From contig JBBKWS010000178.1 of NCBI GenBank assembly GCA_037969075.1, positions 1 to 21,750 of the forward strand: DNA of 21,750 nucleotides, given 5' to 3'. How positions within the stretch are numbered: the stretch's first letter is position 1; each line of letters starts with the position of its first letter. Shown piece by piece: positions 1,101 through 17,184 of the stretch. The notes under the pieces are model-generated. The model searched no databases. It was not told where the DNA came from and was given only the letters and a program-made list of their open reading frames with translations. Source of the DNA: Bdellovibrionales bacterium. Its GTDB lineage: Bacteria > Bdellovibrionota > Bdellovibrionia > Bdellovibrionales > UBA840. Made by a program: the position numbers and the translations under genes.

Positions 1101-1967
1101 TCAATCTTCACAGTACATTTGATTAGGATCACTATCCCAAGTGCTTGAATCATTTGGATCGATATCTGAATCTACAGGGTCATTATAATTAACTAGCGGG
1201 CCAGCTTGGTATCTAAAATTACCCGGTGAAAAACAGTTGTAACTACCAATGCCGTTTGTGATCGGGCGGCAGTCTTCTCTTTCTCCAGGAAGGGGAGCGT
1301 TTACAGGCTCTGGCTGCGAAAAGTTGTTCCATGTGCTTTGTTCACTAACGGCTAGTAAATTATTTTTAAAATCATTTAAATTCCAAACTGCAATATAATT
1401 TGCACTTGGGATACCGCCAAAATTAAAGGTAAGTTTTGTAGTTCCGGCTGGTATTTTGATCCAGTACTTTGGATCATTACCAAACTTACCAAATTGAATA
1501 ATGGTTGTAGTGAACGGTCTTTGGGTTTGAAATTTTGCTAAAAGTGCTTGGGTCCACGTAGAGGTATGACACACATTAAATAATGGTTGATTAGTTGCTG
1601 TTACAGTATCATAGGTAACTACAAATGAATCGGGATGAGCATAGGTACTAACTTCTATATATAAGTATTTTTCTGAAGGTGTCCCGTGAGTTAGATCATT
1701 GGCTACTAAACTAAATTTTGATAGTTGCGCGTTACTAAGTTGAAAGCCAACAGAGCTTGCCGTCAAAAACGATGGTTTTTGTAAGCATGGGCTAGGGTAA
1801 GTTGAAACTCCCTCTGGGTTTCCTGCATGGCAGGCAAGAGGATCAATGGGTTCTGAGGGCCCACCAAGATCACCTACGACATCACTAAAACGCACCTCAC
1901 CACAATTTTGATAAAAAACAGCTATGACTATTGATAGTAAAGCTAAAATAACCACATTCTTCTTCAT
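1101..1967 (-). CDS. Hypothetical lipoprotein with QNC-type signal peptide
   Basis: MKKNVVILALLSIVIAVFYQNC. Start placed at 1967 rather than 1973 because it aligns exactly with the ATG at 3121 in the duplicated cassette. Confidence 0.7.
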   Translation of the reverse strand: MKKNVVILALLSIVIAVFYQNCGEVRFSDVVGDLGGPSEPIDPLACHAGNPEGVSTYPSPCLQKPSFLTASSVGFQLSNAQLSKFSLVANDLTHGTPSEKYLYIEVSTYAHPDSFVVTYDTVTATNQPLFNVCHTSTWTQALLAKFQTQRPFTTTIIQFGKFGNDPKYWIKIPAGTTKLTFNFGGIPSANYIAVWNLNDFKNNLLAVSEQSTWNNFSQPEPVNAPLPGEREDCRPITNGIGSYNCFSPGNFRYQAGPLVNYNDPVDSDIDPNDSSTWDSDPNQMYCED

Positions 1968-2004
1968 ACACATCTATCGGTCTAGTCAGATCTCAACTTG
2001 AGAC
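1902..2004 (-). repeat. Copy 1 of 103-bp direct repeat (promoter + signal-peptide coding region)
   Basis: Ungapped match to 3056-3158, 87/103 identical by manual count. Confidence 0.9.
1973..2004 (-). promoter_or_regulatory. Sigma28/FliA-like promoter with overlapping TCTCAA-G-TTGAGA palindrome
   Basis: Minus strand GTCTCAAGTTGAGATCTGACTAGACCGATAGATGTGTATG: TCAAG-N15-ACCGATAG versus consensus TAAA/TCAAG...GCCGATAA. Confidence 0.55.
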
Positions 2005-2035
2005 GAAAAAAACTTTTTTAAAGAAAAACTATGTA

Positions 2036-3121
2036 TTAAGGTTGTAAAACCAGATTACACTGATTGTTAACTACATAACGCTGACCGTTTATAGTTTGAG
2101 TGGCACCAGAATATATAGGTTGTGTCATCAATAAAAACGCGCATCCGCCAGGGTTTCTACAAGTTGGATCCATTTTAATATTTATATAATATTTTCGCCC
2201 ACGATCCATTAGACAATTATTATTAGGCTCAATATCTGGGTTAGATCTTACGCGTCCCCACATACCACCAGCAGAAGTGTGAGATATACATGACCCACTA
2301 AAATCCCCAGGGTTTGTACTTAGAGCCCAAGTGTCAACGGCAGCTGGTATTCCTCCACAGGCACTAGCAGGTCCTTCACCCATAAAGAAAAATCCGCAAA
2401 GTGTCTTACTTGAATCATAGTTTACATGGGGGACTTCAATTTCCATGGCCACATACTCATCAGGACGTATACTCAGATAATAAATACCTTGCCCTGGTTG
2501 TGAAACATCGACACCACTCTGGCGACATTGATTGTATTGAGCCGCAACTTGTGGTGATGCTCTAAAGTCATAATCCGCATGACAATACTTCGCTTGTGCA
2601 TAATTAAAATTCGGATTGGTAGCAATACCTCCCCCAATACAACCTGAACCAACACTTTGCTGTCCTGGGGGCGCTGGATTTGGCGGTGGATAAATAGGCT
2701 CAGGGGTTGGAGTTGGTATAGGTGGTGGATCGCAGTTTTCACCATCGGCTGTATAGTTAACTTCTAAATTAATTTCTTCATCACAGTCTATGTATGTAGC
2801 AGTAACTTCATAGGTATGGCAAGCAACAAGGTCTGCTTTGTGTACCACTAACTCGGGAGCTTCAGCAGACTGTAAATTAATTCTATTTTCTGAAAACTTC
2901 CAAGAAAAATTTCTTTGGCTAACTGTGATCAAGGTATCTAGGTCGATAATAGAAAAGCGAACATTATCTGGGTCCGTATTGTCAGTTCTTATTCCGTAAG
3001 TTACAGGGTTACATGTTTTTGATAAAGAATTAATATGATTTAAATCAATTTCGCTACAATTTTGATACGTAGCAATTATGACTATAGATAGTAAAGCTAA
3101 AATAATCACATTTTTTCTCAT
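2036..3121 (-). CDS. Cys-rich hypothetical lipoprotein with QNC-type signal and Pro-rich linker
   Basis: MRKNVIILALLSIVIIATYQNC; linker PPPIPTPTPEPIYPPPNPAPP; 15 Cys. Confidence 0.75.
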   Translation of the reverse strand: MRKNVIILALLSIVIIATYQNCSEIDLNHINSLSKTCNPVTYGIRTDNTDPDNVRFSIIDLDTLITVSQRNFSWKFSENRINLQSAEAPELVVHKADLVACHTYEVTATYIDCDEEINLEVNYTADGENCDPPPIPTPTPEPIYPPPNPAPPGQQSVGSGCIGGGIATNPNFNYAQAKYCHADYDFRASPQVAAQYNQCRQSGVDVSQPGQGIYYLSIRPDEYVAMEIEVPHVNYDSSKTLCGFFFMGEGPASACGGIPAAVDTWALSTNPGDFSGSCISHTSAGGMWGRVRSNPDIEPNNNCLMDRGRKYYINIKMDPTCRNPGGCAFLLMTQPIYSGATQTINGQRYVVNNQCNLVLQP

Positions 3122-3158
3122 ACTTATTTATCGGTCTAGTTAGATCCCAACTTGAGAC
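3056..3158 (-). repeat. Copy 2 of 103-bp direct repeat
   Basis: Matches 1902-2004 at an offset of 1154 bp. Confidence 0.9.
3128..3158 (-). promoter_or_regulatory. Sigma28/FliA-like promoter
   Basis: Minus strand GTCTCAAGTTGGGATCTAACTAGACCGATAA, followed by ATAAGT then ATG. Confidence 0.55.
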
Positions 3159-3280
3159 AAATGTTTAAATTTAATTATGAATAAATACCAAACAAACTGG
3201 GCAAAATTATCAAAAATGCAAGTGGTCCTAAGTGAAGTCATTCCGTTTGCTGAAGACCCAAATCATTTTTAATATAGTTT

Positions 3281-3309
3281 TTGTAAAACTACCGAAAGCA
3301 TTCTATATA
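3281..3309 (+). promoter_or_regulatory. Sigma70-like promoter, probable leaderless start
   Basis: TTGTAA-N17-TATATA-N6-ATG(3316). Confidence 0.4.
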
Positions 3310-3315
3310 TTTCTC

Positions 3316-4344
3316 ATGCTGCCCATTGAAAAATTCAATTTTCCAGTTTGTCTAGCGCCTATGGTGGCGTTAAGTCATGTGGCTCTTAGGCATTTAATCT
3401 ACGAATATTTGCCTGAGGGTGCCAAGACAATTTGGCCCACCGAGATGTTAAATTCTAGAAGAATACCACAACAGACTTTAGGAGAAACCCCCGAGACCAA
3501 ACTGCATGCCTTTGATCATAATCTTGTGCCTCAGCTTTTAGCCAATGAAGAAAATTTTATTGTAGAAAGTGTCGCTAAGCTACAAGAATGGGGAGCAAGG
3601 GGCATAGATATCAATATGGGGTGCCCTGTTAAAAAAGCCCTGAACCATAATTACGGCGTGGCTTTAATGGGCGATATAAACTACGCCACTAAAATTGTAG
3701 AATGGACTGTCAACGCCGCAAGCGTACCCGTTTCTGTAAAAGTGCGGGCAGGATTAGAGAATAATAAAACCTATTTGAAGGATTTCTTGCAATCCATCGA
3801 GGGGGCAGGGGCCGCTTGGATTACACTTCACCCAAGGTTAGCAAGTGAAAAGAGAAGGGGTGAGGCTGATTGGTCGTTAGTAAATGAAGCAAAATCATGG
3901 CTAAAAATCCCAATCATTGCTAACGGGGACGTGCAAACGGCTACAGATATTGATAACTATTTTTCTGTCAGCGGGGCTGACGCTATTATGATTGGTAGGG
4001 CATTGAATGCCAGGCCATGGTTACTTTGGCAGTGGGGGCAGGCAAAAGGCTTTTTGAATCCAATAGGAAAAGAGATATGCCCTATGAGTCCCATTGAAGA
4101 GGGAAGAGAATACGGCATCAGCATGCTAAGATTATTAGATTTATTAGAAATGTATTTTGGTACAATGGAAGCTGTTAAAAAATTTCGTTTTCATATTCGG
4201 ATGAGCCACATGTGGCTTGATTTTGGACATTCATTGATATCGATCGTTGGGAGATCGCAGGATATAAATGTCATTCGAAAAGATTGGATCGAATTTTTTG
4301 AAAAACCGCAAAGAATGAATCCGAAAACTCTTTTGCGGTTTTAG
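3316..4344 (+). CDS. tRNA-dihydrouridine synthase family protein (Dus)
   Basis: Motifs LAPMV, DINMGCP, SVKVRAG, TLHPR, IANGDV, IMIGR. ATG 3316 preferred because the family fold begins just before LAPM. Confidence 0.9.
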   Translation: MLPIEKFNFPVCLAPMVALSHVALRHLIYEYLPEGAKTIWPTEMLNSRRIPQQTLGETPETKLHAFDHNLVPQLLANEENFIVESVAKLQEWGARGIDINMGCPVKKALNHNYGVALMGDINYATKIVEWTVNAASVPVSVKVRAGLENNKTYLKDFLQSIEGAGAAWITLHPRLASEKRRGEADWSLVNEAKSWLKIPIIANGDVQTATDIDNYFSVSGADAIMIGRALNARPWLLWQWGQAKGFLNPIGKEICPMSPIEEGREYGISMLRLLDLLEMYFGTMEAVKKFRFHIRMSHMWLDFGHSLISIVGRSQDINVIRKDWIEFFEKPQRMNPKTLLRF

Positions 4345-4349
4345 TTACC

Positions 4350-5108
4350 TTATTGGATTATGTATAGAGTTTTGTAAGCAGTTTTATTTGCTCTTGTGCC
4401 GTCAGTAAGTGTCTTTACCGATCCATCGCGATTTATAATATCTACTTGGCCTTGACCATTGCTTCCGATTAAATGAAACAAGTCTTGCGCTCTCTGCGTC
4501 TCGACTCGGATGCAACCATGAGAAGCTTTTTTTCCAAGGTTAGCATTAGATGTAGTTCCGTGCGTAGCATACAAATAATCAAGTGTGAAAAAAACGGCCC
4601 AAGGCATTGGAGCGTTGTTATATGTTGTTGATCTGTGCTCAGAAGAAAACATTTCAGGTGTAAAATGTCCCTTTGGAGTGATTCTGCCAGCAACGGCAGT
4701 AGACACTTTCCAATAATATAGTAGTCCTACGTCAGGATCATAGGGTTTATCCATGTGAAATCTGTCCCAACCAATTTGTTCAATGGCATTGGGTCTAACG
4801 TATACACGCATACGCTGGCCTTCTGCGGATCTTTGCCCCGCTAACTCTGCTTCATTTTCTAAATTAACTAAAACTATAATATCATAAGTCTCAAAGCGAT
4901 CGTCTTTAAGTGGACTAGCTAGCTCTTGTGCGTAGGAGTAATCGGGGTCTTCATAGTGTGTAACATCTTCAAATACGCCGAATTTGTGAATCTGAGTTTC
5001 ATCTGAATTTTTATCAGACTCGTAGTTGGGTTGTTTCCAAGTTCTGGCAGCGATGGCAGTATTTGGGATTAAAAACGGTAGGACGATAAGTAGTAGTAGT
5101 TTAGTCAT
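4350..5108 (-). CDS. Secreted L,D-transpeptidase (YkuD family)
   Basis: Signal peptide; VSTA, TPKG, MPWAVFF, ATHGT...GKKASHGCIR catalytic His/Cys motif. Confidence 0.88.
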   Translation of the reverse strand: MTKLLLLIVLPFLIPNTAIAARTWKQPNYESDKNSDETQIHKFGVFEDVTHYEDPDYSYAQELASPLKDDRFETYDIIVLVNLENEAELAGQRSAEGQRMRVYVRPNAIEQIGWDRFHMDKPYDPDVGLLYYWKVSTAVAGRITPKGHFTPEMFSSEHRSTTYNNAPMPWAVFFTLDYLYATHGTTSNANLGKKASHGCIRVETQRAQDLFHLIGSNGQGQVDIINRDGSVKTLTDGTRANKTAYKTLYIIQ

Positions 5109-6979: not shown

Positions 6980-7390
6980 ATGAAGTTAGATATTATCCCA
7001 GCAGTAGCAAAACGCTTTCCTACATTTTGTAAAAAATGTGACTCAGAAAGATATCACATAGTTTTAGCTCATGTTAAGGGAGGATCAGCAAAGATTGAAT
7101 GTGAAGTTTGTCACAAAAAATCTACCTTTAGTTTAAATAAGCAGCCCACAGCTCCTGCAAAAACAAGAGCAAAGAGAAAGACAGTATCTTCAACTTACAG
7201 AAACTGGTCAGAATTCAAAGAGCATGTGGATGAAAAAAATGCGCAGCCGTATAAAATTCATAATAAGTACGATGAAAAAGCATCCATTTTACATCCGACA
7301 TTTGGTTTAGGCTTAGTTTTAAAATCGGAAGCTACAAAAATTGAAGTAGCATTTGAAGAAGGAATAAAGGCTCTAGTTCATAATCGATGA
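6980..7390 (+). CDS. Zinc-ribbon + UvrD/PcrA-type Tudor-like domain protein
   Basis: CKKC...CEVC; basic linker; HPTFGLGLV...IEVAFEEGIKALV. Confidence 0.7.
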   Translation: MKLDIIPAVAKRFPTFCKKCDSERYHIVLAHVKGGSAKIECEVCHKKSTFSLNKQPTAPAKTRAKRKTVSSTYRNWSEFKEHVDEKNAQPYKIHNKYDEKASILHPTFGLGLVLKSEATKIEVAFEEGIKALVHNR

Positions 7391-8361
7391 AGCTCTTAAG
7401 TTGGAATCTTTGGAATAGTTTTAAACGAATTGAAAACCCATTTCTAGTTTCCTTTCTTGAGCCATCAAGACGCCGTGATCGTCGTTACTTACACCAGCTT
7501 AAACTCTTGCAAGAGAAACAGTTCGATATTTGCCTTTTGCAAGAGGTGAACCCCATCTTTGATAAGATTAGAGATTTTAAAGAAATTCTGAACTATCAGA
7601 CAACCTACCAAATAGATCAGGGCGGACTACGGTTCAAAAGAGTTGGCCTTCCTTTAAATTTTACCAATGGGTTAGCCACGTTAACAAAAGCACCGCAAAA
7701 AAAAATTAAAGGATTAAAGTTAAGTGGAAAGTTTGGGACAAGTGAAGAGGATTACTCTTTGCAATTTAGTGAGTTTAGATATGCGAGTTTTTCTGAGTCT
7801 GAGATTAACAATAAAAAAATACTTTTGGTAAACACCCACTTTCATCATGGTGTTGAATGGTCGGAAGAGATCGAGAACGAATTGATCACAGAGACCACTA
7901 CTGAGGACTTTGACCTCATCAAATCTTCTATAGAAATATCTACAAAAAGAAAAGAGCAGGAAATTTCGATATTAATCGCTGAAATCAAAAAACACCATGC
8001 TAGTTACGATATTGTGATTGTAGCAGGGGATTTTAATTTTAGTACTACGGCTGATGTATTAAAGTGTTTTGCTGAGGTAGGATTAAAGCGAGTAGATCAC
8101 GTTGGTCATACTTGGGAGCCTGAAGTGAATCACGAGAATTTTACATTTACTAATGCACTTAGGCCTCCAGTCGGACTTGATGTTTCAGACCTAGCTCTTA
8201 AGATTTTAAGAAAATATGATGGCAGAAGTCGCACTATTGATCATGTGTTTATTAGTGAAAATATAAAATTAAATTACGCGAAATTGTTTGGACAAATTAC
8301 TAACCGAGAAGGATTTTTTCCGTCGGATCATTTTGGCGTCGAGGTAGATTGCGATATATGA
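7387..8361 (+). CDS. Endonuclease/exonuclease/phosphatase (EEP) family protein
   Basis: LLSWNL, LLQEV, NTHF, AGDFN, IDHVF, PSDH motifs; ATGA overlap with the upstream gene. Confidence 0.9.
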   Translation: MKLLSWNLWNSFKRIENPFLVSFLEPSRRRDRRYLHQLKLLQEKQFDICLLQEVNPIFDKIRDFKEILNYQTTYQIDQGGLRFKRVGLPLNFTNGLATLTKAPQKKIKGLKLSGKFGTSEEDYSLQFSEFRYASFSESEINNKKILLVNTHFHHGVEWSEEIENELITETTTEDFDLIKSSIEISTKRKEQEISILIAEIKKHHASYDIVIVAGDFNFSTTADVLKCFAEVGLKRVDHVGHTWEPEVNHENFTFTNALRPPVGLDVSDLALKILRKYDGRSRTIDHVFISENIKLNYAKLFGQITNREGFFPSDHFGVEVDCDI

Positions 8362-15399: not shown

Positions 15400-15437
15400 G
15401 AACTTAGTTAACAACACCATTCTTGGAGGAACTAAAG

Positions 15438-15830
15438 ATGGCAAAGAAAAAAGCAACAAAAAAGAAAGCTACTAAAAAAGTAGCGAAGAAAGCTACTGCA
15501 AAGAAAGCTACTAAAAAAGTAGCGAAGAAAGCAACTGCGAAAAAAGCTACTAAAAAAGCTACTAAAGCAAAGACTAAAAGAAAGCCAAATGCTGCTTTCA
15601 TGAGACCTTTGACTCCTAGTTCTGATTTAGCTGCTGTTATCGGTTCTGGAAATGTTCCAAGAACTGAAGTAGTTAAAAAAATCTGGGCATACATCCGTAA
15701 GCACAACTTACAAGATGCTAAAAACAGAAGAAACATCAATGCTGATGACAAATTAAAAGTTGTTTTCGGTGGTAAGAAACAAGTTTCTATGTTCGAAATG
15801 ACTAAACTAATCAGCAAGCACTTGAAATAG
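15438..15830 (+). CDS. SWIB/MDM2 domain protein with histone-H1-like Lys/Ala-rich N-terminus
   Basis: GGAGG SD at 15425; KKAT repeats; RKPNAAFMRPLTPS..LAAVIG...PRTEVVKKIWAYIRKHNLQD.KNRRNINAD. Confidence 0.92.
   Translation: MAKKKATKKKATKKVAKKATAKKATKKVAKKATAKKATKKATKAKTKRKPNAAFMRPLTPSSDLAAVIGSGNVPRTEVVKKIWAYIRKHNLQDAKNRRNINADDKLKVVFGGKKQVSMFEMTKLISKHLK
15462..15539 (+). repeat. Two tandem 39-bp coding repeats (KKATKKVAKKATA)
   Basis: 15462-15500 and 15501-15539 are near-identical, followed by a partial third copy. Confidence 0.85.
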
Positions 15831-15897: not shown

Positions 15898-17184
15898 TTA
15901 ATAGCTATATCTTACAATGATTGGGTTTACAGAGATTTTTGCTAAACCCTGTTTTACATCATTAATCATCTGATTCATTCCCGTAGAAACTTCATAAGAA
16001 GGTTCATCGGTGATTAGGATGATCTCTCTGTTTAAGCTTTTCCAATCTAACTTTTTAACAGCCATGTTTAAACCATGGTAACTAGCCTCACCAGGGTCAA
16101 TAGAATGTTGGCTTTGTGAGAATCTGTTTAATAGGTTTCTTAATGTTGCATCGACTTTATTTAAGTCTTCAGTGAAAGCAAGGTCTATTGCTTCTCTACC
16201 AGGCTCACCAAAAGTAACGACAGCAATTCTAACTGTTCGTCCACTTTGTTTGATGGCTTTGAAATTAGCATTTAACTTAATTAGGTTAGATATAACTTCA
16301 CTAATGTTGTTAGACATAGAACCCGAGTAATCGATAACCAAAGCAAGTTCTAGATTGTCTGCATTTGTATTCATTTTACTTTTTAGAACGCTAACTTGAT
16401 CAACCATAACATCTGATAATTCAGTAGAAGAGTTTGCGATACCTAAAACACCGTTTGTCTCTTCGGCCATGCTAAGGTTTTGGATTACTGTATCTCTGCT
16501 AAAACCCTTAGAGGTTGCATAAGATAAGATATTGTCTTTGCCGGATTGTACATGAGTACTGCCATTTGAACGATAAATTGCATTTGAGCTGCCTTGGCTT
16601 ACATTCTGCAAAATAGCAGTTTCTCTAGCGGTAATCTCAATATTTTTTTCAACTGCTGAGGGGCAAGATTCTTGAGATAAGCTCAAAGCAACTGATTCCA
16701 TATTGCTAAGTATGCTTCTAAACCCTGTTAACTGCTTAGATATGCCTAAGGTAACTTTTAACAATTCAGCACGTTGAGAAGTTTCGGCTTGATAAACCAA
16801 CTTTGCATTATCTCTCAGCGTTTGTACACTTAGTAGGCCAGCCTCTTCTGCTTCAATAATTTCATTAAGTGCTGTCTTTTTATTAGCAGTAAACGCTGTG
16901 AAGGCATTGCATGAACTCTTACTATTTAAAGTAAAGTAGCTATCGCTAACTAGTTTCATTTTACTATCTAGAGATTTAATTCCTGCTATATATGAGGAAA
17001 TGTTTTTATCCACTACGGTTCCATTCGTAGTAAGATCATTATATTTTTTTACTAAGTCATTATATTGGCTAACCTGTTCATTGTAGGTGTCTTCATTTAC
17101 ACCGCTGCTAGAATCATCGTCGCAGGCAGCAAGAAACATAGTTAAAGAGGCAATCAGTAATACGGGTAATTTTTTAAATAACAT
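15898..17184 (-). CDS. Lipoprotein with helical/coiled-coil stalk and C-terminal von Willebrand factor A domain
   Basis: Lipobox FLAA-C; LALVIDYSGSM (MIDAS DxSxS), IAVVTF, IILITDEP; AGGAG SD. Confidence 0.85.
   Translation of the reverse strand: MLFKKLPVLLIASLTMFLAACDDDSSSGVNEDTYNEQVSQYNDLVKKYNDLTTNGTVVDKNISSYIAGIKSLDSKMKLVSDSYFTLNSKSSCNAFTAFTANKKTALNEIIEAEEAGLLSVQTLRDNAKLVYQAETSQRAELLKVTLGISKQLTGFRSILSNMESVALSLSQESCPSAVEKNIEITARETAILQNVSQGSSNAIYRSNGSTHVQSGKDNILSYATSKGFSRDTVIQNLSMAEETNGVLGIANSSTELSDVMVDQVSVLKSKMNTNADNLELALVIDYSGSMSNNISEVISNLIKLNANFKAIKQSGRTVRIAVVTFGEPGREAIDLAFTEDLNKVDATLRNLLNRFSQSQHSIDPGEASYHGLNMAVKKLDWKSLNREIILITDEPSYEVSTGMNQMINDVKQGLAKISVNPIIVRYSY

Follow-up and report, generated by a model that had tools for sequence, protein, structure and literature searches.

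Two unrelated predicted lipoprotein genes behind copies of one promoter and leader in an uncultured Bdellovibrionales bacterium: a candidate insertion with long target duplication

The placing of one promoter and leader on unrelated lipoproteins is a known architecture. In Borrelia burgdorferi, as far as the accounts of the erp genes (ospE/ospF/elp) and their upstream homology box go (PMC9060444, PMC10016077), one promoter/leader stands on evolutionarily unrelated mature lipoproteins, in many copies and with repeated exchange, and in the description of vpma of Mycoplasma agalactiae and vsp of M. bovis (PMC2268961) a conserved 5′ region and signal peptide precede differing lipoprotein bodies in a cluster, which has one promoter only and depends on inversions together with a tyrosine recombinase (Xer1/Mbr). 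Insertion with long target duplication is a class of event defined for restriction-modification genes (PMC2853133). Here we describe two adjacent minus-strand genes, A (P0001) and B (P0002), which begin with near-identical copies of a predicted promoter and leader and continue into mature proteins with no detectable sequence similarity. They lie in a 21,750-nucleotide (nt) stretch of a Bdellovibrionales bacterium (GCA_037969075.1, contig JBBKWS010000178.1, positions 1 to 21,750), called the window below; the genome is G000 and the contig C178. The locus appears to record one event, of a type already described, rather than a cassette in wide reuse. It differs from erp in having two copies, a chromosomal context and no phage match found for B, and from vpma/vsp in having a promoter copy for each gene, in direct orientation, with no recombinase among the 20 open reading frames (ORFs) scanned in the window. 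The two genes are as follows (aa, amino acids; pLDDT, predicted local distance difference test).

1101..1967, minus strand: gene A, 288 aa, predicted lipoprotein with a low-confidence jelly-roll core at aa 67-199, likely the resident gene; 78% identical orthologue at the same locus of G001, a genome of the same genus; model pLDDT 43, best Z 5.8
2036..3121, minus strand: gene B, 361 aa, predicted immunoglobulin (Ig)-like domain, Pro-rich linker and PPC/jelly-roll-like domain (structure model and fold search), likely the inserted gene; homologues at 84, 47 and 47% identity

The history that we favour, at a probability of roughly 55%, places the event after G001 had split off: B would have entered the 5′ end of A, and A's promoter and leader would have been the long target duplicated in the process. 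B would be a predicted surface lipoprotein gene from elsewhere and A the resident gene of the locus; insertion at the start of A would have duplicated a target of ∼80-100 bp, leaving each gene headed by a copy of the same predicted sigma28 promoter and signal peptide. The join would lie in the leader near codon 15, helped by a [YF]QNC leader already present in B's family, and in one step the new gene would have gained timing and export while the resident gene kept both.

Positions 1902-2004 and 3056-3158 align without gaps at 87 of 103 nt, and the first 30 nt of the two copies on the minus strand, at the promoter end, agree at 28; both values had been reported in a first-pass annotation of this DNA and were reproduced on realignment. 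The repeat of 103 nt is the largest in the window and has a period of 1154. Control windows of 103 nt anchored on the Cys codon gave a mean identity of 39.5 ± 6.2 (325 pairs from 26 motif matches in G000, two of which are an internal ENC in a paralogous pair and not signal peptides), and one source-sample contig covers the whole stretch unbroken with a single differing letter, so that chance and assembly artefact are both ruled out as sources of the repeat. The segments that matter for its boundaries are listed here.

3077..3158, minus strand: copy B of the duplicated tract, promoter to codon 15 of gene B; 72/82 identical to copy A; present in the contig of a co-occurring relative that aligns over 2048-3161
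1923..2004, minus strand: copy A of the duplicated tract, promoter to codon 15 of gene A; more private changes relative to G001 than copy B
1902..1922, minus strand: codons 16-18 and YQNC of A, outside the copied tract; codons 16-18 match B at 3/9 and the G001 orthologue at 6/9
2005..2035, minus strand: A/T-rich spacer of 31 nt from the stop of B to copy A, with no hairpin; no fold was predicted for it and no terminator-like site was found on the minus strand

Identity between the two genes is 34/43 in the promoter, 9/12 in codons 1-4 and 31/33 in codons 5-15, drops in codons 16-18 (Fisher p=4e-4 for the fall after codon 15), is complete (12/12) over YQNC and amounts to 16/60 after the Cys. 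The YQNC match is largely to be expected of a motif common to a class: in 24 genes of the genome a hydrophobic stretch leads into [YF]QNC, and their motif 12-mers agree pairwise at a mean of 9.9/12, with 15 of 276 pairs at 12/12. Because identity drops at codons 16-18 and YQNC is the class motif, the junction of the copied tract probably lies inside the leader near codon 15, ∼7 codons before the Cys. The first-pass annotation had similarity stopping at the Cys, which is indeed where it ends, but the likely junction is earlier. Read alignment placed the contig with copy B on exactly 1923-2004.

The locus can be followed into other genomes from an anchoring gene.

3319..4344, plus strand: tRNA-dihydrouridine synthase gene (dus), divergent, the synteny anchor (PF01207, E 7.7e-51); 85.6% identical to the G001 orthologue

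In G001 the order is dus, a 250-aa ORF X, one promoter-leader and then directly the A orthologue, to the end of the contig (C38); B is absent from this locus. Both copies of G000 align to the single G001 copy, copy B at 46/52 and copy A together with gene A at 73% over 744 nt. The G001 promoter and codons 1-4 match copy B at 46/55 and copy A at 37/55, the mature part after the leader matches A at 42/60 and B at 18/60, and the hydrophobic region of the leader is about equally far from both (22/42 and 19/42). Third codon positions of the leader agree at 18/22 between A and B, compared with 9/22 and 11/22 against G001, which indicates that the two leader copies share an ancestor younger than the split of the two genomes. 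B looks foreign to the locus, since its G001 homologue is 47% identical (A, 78%; dus, 85.6%) and adjoins a coiled-coil gene at the start of a contig; in G000 the orthologue of this coiled-coil gene has no B adjoining it. The direction was probably insertion and not loss. ORF X, which separates dus from the promoter in G001 and probably does so in a co-occurring strain too, is absent from window positions 3162-3318 and was not found in G000 by tblastn. A contig of this strain (run X2) carries dus, 780 other letters, a leader and B at ∼83% identity; the 780 letters are known by length only, and as this is about the size of the ORF X interval of G001, B appears to have taken the slot held there by A.

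Several observations weigh against the insertion of B. G001 belongs to another species (∼73% DNA identity), is the one outgroup and has a completeness of 86%; since the contig breaks off within A and the B homologue of G001 begins at the edge of a contig, the order A then B is possible there. The G001 leader agrees poorly with both copies in the hydrophobic region, but no more poorly than leaders can among 13 orthologue pairs (16-37 of 42), and this feature does not discriminate. In a second co-occurring relative (one 213-nt contig, run X2), the end of B is joined to the YQNC of A through 81 letters, known by length only, as against 122 in G000, and this segment did not align at 80% identity. 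The 81-nt relative may have lost a redundant promoter after the insertion, as the proposed history would have it, or may show an older state with a different A leader, which would favour later gene conversion.

Segmental gene conversion is the main alternative, a tentative one with the odds against it: A and B would have stood side by side from before, each with its own leader, until A received a copy of B's promoter and of its first 15 codons, and G001 would have lost B by a deletion joining the promoter to A's own leader. It fits better than insertion with the 81-nt relative, in which there is no room for a full, non-overlapping promoter copy, and would account for the likeness of G001 to copy B in the promoter and codons 1-4 and to copy A in codons 16-18 (6/9 vs 3/9), as in a deletion hybrid. 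The same leader type is moreover found in the B orthologue P0006 and not in the A homologues P0004 and P0010, and QNC genes stand in tandem elsewhere (C83 of G000; locus L190 of genome G095). However, gene conversion needs more events (arrival of B, conversion and deletion of B), and the asymmetry is also expected if the downstream promoter copy became redundant after insertion. The leaders of orthologues also diverge this far without replacement, two of the 13 pairs lying below A's value (16 and 17 of 42); the leader divergence of A, only the third lowest of the 13, was rejected as proof of leader replacement. No joint deleting B was found in three runs, all from one sample that is possibly the source of this DNA.

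Insertion of B with target duplication resembles the class defined for restriction-modification genes, as that class is described (PMC2853133), in an insert of less than 20 kb, direct repeats of more than 30 bp that are unique in the genome (here 82-103 bp), a single copy in the relative and no mobility gene seen. It differs in that the published cases have restriction-modification cargo and are mostly within one species, whereas here the cargo is a predicted lipoprotein and the comparison is between species, and in that the duplicated target here is a promoter and leader fused in frame with the cargo. Neither integrase nor transposase was found among the 20 ORFs scanned in the window, and G000 is 90% complete. 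A literature search on a shared promoter or signal peptide together with target duplication found nothing related.

G000 holds other direct repeats, of 89-183 bp, flanking stretches of 1-3 kb (C163, C188, C28); among them are an 89-bp repeat and direct repeats of 152, 183 and 102 bp around stretches of 1.5-3.2 kb, and each pair on C163, C188 and C28 matches one copy in the G001 loci fetched. As precedents for the event proposed here they speak for it through that single match, and against it in that 3′ ends are what they copy and no G001 contig reaches across a whole empty site. On C188 (24575-24726 / 26102-26253, L212) a 408-aa ORF, not found in G001 by DNA search, stands between direct repeats of 152 bp (89%) that copy the 3′ end of a lipoprotein-like gene; this stretch is a candidate for insertion with long target duplication. 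On C28 (5073-5255 / 7337-7519, L214) a 183-bp repeat of a small membrane-protein ORF has a second copy that intrudes on a short QNC-leader ORF near 7279, and a second repeat pair, of 200 bp, lies close by. The 102-bp repeat on C53 (5100-5199 / 8253-8352) is intergenic, with hairpin-like arms after gene ends.

The mature parts of A and B look unrelated, as the first-pass annotation had noted. BLASTP and profile comparison confine their similarity to residues 1-30, and the domain profiles gave no alignment (probability 0.3%, E 0.21). Scans against Pfam and NCBIfam found no match for either protein at E<=1, and A had no usable match in the Atlas search. The description of both as Cys-rich is apt for B, with 15 Cys in 340 aa, and less so for A, with 7 in 267. 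Two domains of B are predicted from its model (rmsd, root-mean-square deviation).

2738..3010, minus strand: predicted Ig-like domain of B, aa 38-128, with no counterpart in A; pLDDT ∼73-83 over aa 41-130; Z 8.5, rmsd 2.6, 80 residues aligned to the mirolase C-terminal domain (8qb1)
2108..2503, minus strand: predicted jelly-roll/PPC-like beta-sandwich of B, aa 207-338; Z 9.0, rmsd 3.0, 99 residues aligned to 9ues (Tk-SP)

The second of these also matched collagen-binding domains at Z 8.0-8.1 in the fold search on the model, and the C-terminal part of B gave an Atlas lead to a PPC cluster at 0.88 (PF04151 on 39% of its members), the other Atlas matches being unnamed clusters at 0.92-0.93. That the Ig, linker and PPC-like arrangement serves surface binding is a guess from the model. 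The models of A and B were built on shallow alignments (3 and 4 sequences). A jelly-roll-like beta-sandwich appears in both, in A at low confidence, and the two proteins (A at aa 67-199, B at aa 207-338) share matched jelly-roll structures, namely the GOLD domains 7rrm and 5azw, XepA 6i56 and the collagen-binding domain 3jqw; A and B may thus be very remotely related through this domain. The structure prediction proposed in the first-pass annotation as a check for remote paralogy therefore returned a likeness of fold, of low confidence for A and with no sequence or profile similarity behind it.

Such a likeness would be expected if a whole gene had simply been duplicated in tandem and the mature parts had then diverged rapidly, a history that we consider very improbable. 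The overlapping jelly-roll matches speak for it, but the best Z of the poor A model is in the background range stated by the fold-search tool, there is no sequence or profile similarity past residue 30, and the Ig-like domain that directly follows the Cys in B is missing from A. Each gene has its own homologues at 47-84% identity, which makes the bodies far older than the 84%-identical leader, and an ancient kinship of one domain would leave that recent leader unexplained. The nearest protein homologues of both are labelled Bdellovibrionales bacterium; order-wide profile searches, G000 included, found B in 4 and A in 3 of 251 genomes, and metagenome scans gave no confirmed relative of B (127 pattern stretches) or A (79).

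The first-pass annotation had proposed a reusable expression-and-export module placed in front of variable surface proteins, which might diversify putative adhesins or proteins of prey contact. One part of this proposal stands, in that one promoter-plus-leader is joined to different bodies, the same promoter slot heading A in G001 and B in G000. The broader history, a dedicated cassette moved around among many payloads in the manner of Borrelia erp or Mycoplasma vpma/vsp, is very unlikely. It draws some support from the 24 QNC genes of G000, whose mature parts have no pairwise BLASTP match at E<0.01 and of which 5 of the 20 scanned match Pfam families (trypsin, FG-GAP three times, RCC1), and from a tandem pair of QNC-leader genes in G095 (C506; L190:229-2469), which share a C-terminal PPC-like domain and differ in their N-terminal domains and leaders (35/103). 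That pair shows domain exchange within the QNC class; a distant relative of B in G095 follows another QNC gene of the pair. However, only two copies exist in G000: the genome-wide search with the 103-mer that the first-pass annotation had suggested (blastn, word size 7) found no third full copy, only a weaker promoter-region match on C35 (E 0.006). Both outcomes that the first-pass annotation had named as refuting its proposal, a fold in common and the lack of further copies, are partly borne out.

The wider comparison used the 110 nt that precede the Cys in each of 120 QNC genes of 10 genomes, of which G000 was scanned whole and the other nine through loci fetched by a promoter-plus-QNC pattern (30/34 and 30/31 matches came with loci); matches lacking a hydrophobic stretch were dropped. 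Near-identical leaders occurred in one of 771 within-genome pairs, that of A and B, with a score of 127, the next being 52 and the mean 21 ± 6. Other leaders follow their own genes between species, the bodies being homologous in 16 of the 17 best cross-genome scores; the exception is this locus, where copy B scores 74 against the leader of the G001 A orthologue. Nor did the three runs contain a joint of leader B to body A, in contigs that drop rare variants. Thus the promoter type and the leader type are common and ordinary in G000, and the near-identity is not.

Of the 24 QNC genes of G000, 12 are preceded by the pattern TYAA-N17-CCGA, compared with 91 of 20000 random windows that contain it. 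A pattern running from CCGAT to QNC was found in 51 of 61 genomes in the order, a count that includes chance matches, with a reversed control mostly at 0. A pattern scan of all genomes yielded 49 stretches, for the most part outside Bdellovibrionota and probably due to chance, which were not used for counts. The start codon follows CCGA[TA] by 7-8 nt in 46 of the 109 genes having this upstream box, a pattern-enriched set with a second mode at ∼19-26 nt, and the shorter spacing suggests leaderless mRNAs in the class. QNC genes also stand in tandem on C83 of G000. A literature search on QNC or FQNC with Bdellovibrio found no paper naming the motif; supplements such as table S2 of PMC3627812 may list such genes or start sites.

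The control elements of the two copies are the following.

3129..3155, minus strand: predicted FliA/sigma28 promoter of B, TCAAG-N16-CCGATA, 7 nt before the ATG (sequence; consensus of PMC3627812; fliA in the genome)
1975..2001, minus strand: predicted FliA/sigma28 promoter of A, with the same boxes and distance, ATG at 1967 (sequence; consensus of PMC3627812)
3056..3121, minus strand: predicted lipoprotein signal peptide of B, 22 aa ending YQNC (translation; class of 24 genes in G000)
1991..2003, strand not assigned: palindrome TCTCAA-G-TTGAGA overlapping the −35 box, perfect in copy A only

Read on the minus strand, each copy thus runs through TCAAG-N16-CCGATA, 7 nt and the ATG into a 22-residue leader that ends in YQNC. 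In Bdellovibrio bacteriovorus, TTAAG-N16-CCGATA was found at 92 of 140 attack-phase promoters and assigned to FliA (sigma28), whose regulon takes in non-flagellar surface proteins (PMC3627812). Both copies carry the consensus −35 and −10 boxes with 16-nt spacing and are predicted sigma28 promoters, fliA is present in G000 (TIGR02479, 275.7 bits; cut-off 189.6), and transcription from both would be attack-phase and FliA-dependent. The system differs from that of B. bacteriovorus in that G000 is an uncultured relative known from sequence, and the [YF]QNC class and leaderless spacing were not noticed in the published study. No sigma70 promoter site was found on the minus strand at the position of either copy. 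Typical sigma28 spacing is the basis for reading the 7-nt gap as leaderless; with only 7 nt between the −10 box and the ATG, a leaderless message is suggested for both genes.

The promoter palindrome noted in the first-pass annotation is perfect in copy A and has one mismatch in copy B and in the G001 copy; being imperfect in two of three copies, a palindromic operator was rejected as the point of the repeat. The sequence GTCTCAA.TTGAGAC counts 8 in G000 over both strands, and GTCTCA/TGAGAC recurs near these promoters (C24, C188, C46, C35, C49, C83), sometimes as the palindrome GTCTCAA-N-TTGAGAC. The leaders have a basic N-region, a hydrophobic stretch and an invariant Cys, and QNC is invariant in all full-length homologues of A and B, both of which are predicted lipoproteins, presumably lipidated at Cys22. 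The motif [YF]QNC departs from the textbook lipobox.

What may be new here is the in-frame capture of a gene by target duplication and an unnamed sigma28/QNC gene class. The locus offers one well-bracketed example of how a new exported protein may come under existing control in a predator-type bacterium; among relatives the site is seen in single-copy, filled and partly reduced form. The [YF]QNC-leader genes are candidate attack-phase surface proteins, comparable to Bd0875, described as a lipobox adhesin of Bdellovibrio (PMC11003981). A much wider proposal, which we think unlikely, is that the attack-phase surface repertoire of Bdellovibrionales is assembled by placing foreign lipoprotein bodies after a duplicated, leaderless sigma28 promoter with a [YF]QNC leader; the C178 pair would then be a recent snapshot and the unrelated QNC lipoproteins of the order an eroded record, shaping prey range. 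If true, a promoter and leader within ∼100 bp would let one long-target-duplication event yield a correctly timed, exported protein.

Elsewhere in the window, the minus-strand gene at 15898-17184 encodes a predicted lipoprotein whose C-terminal part is a von Willebrand A domain (PF13519, E 3.4e-8), the domain class of Bd0875. At 4350-5108 on the minus strand an L,D-transpeptidase (YkuD) gene is convergent on dus and syntenic in G001, and at 15423-15830 on the plus strand is a gene for a SWIB-domain protein with a Lys/Ala-rich repeat N-terminus (repeat family D2).

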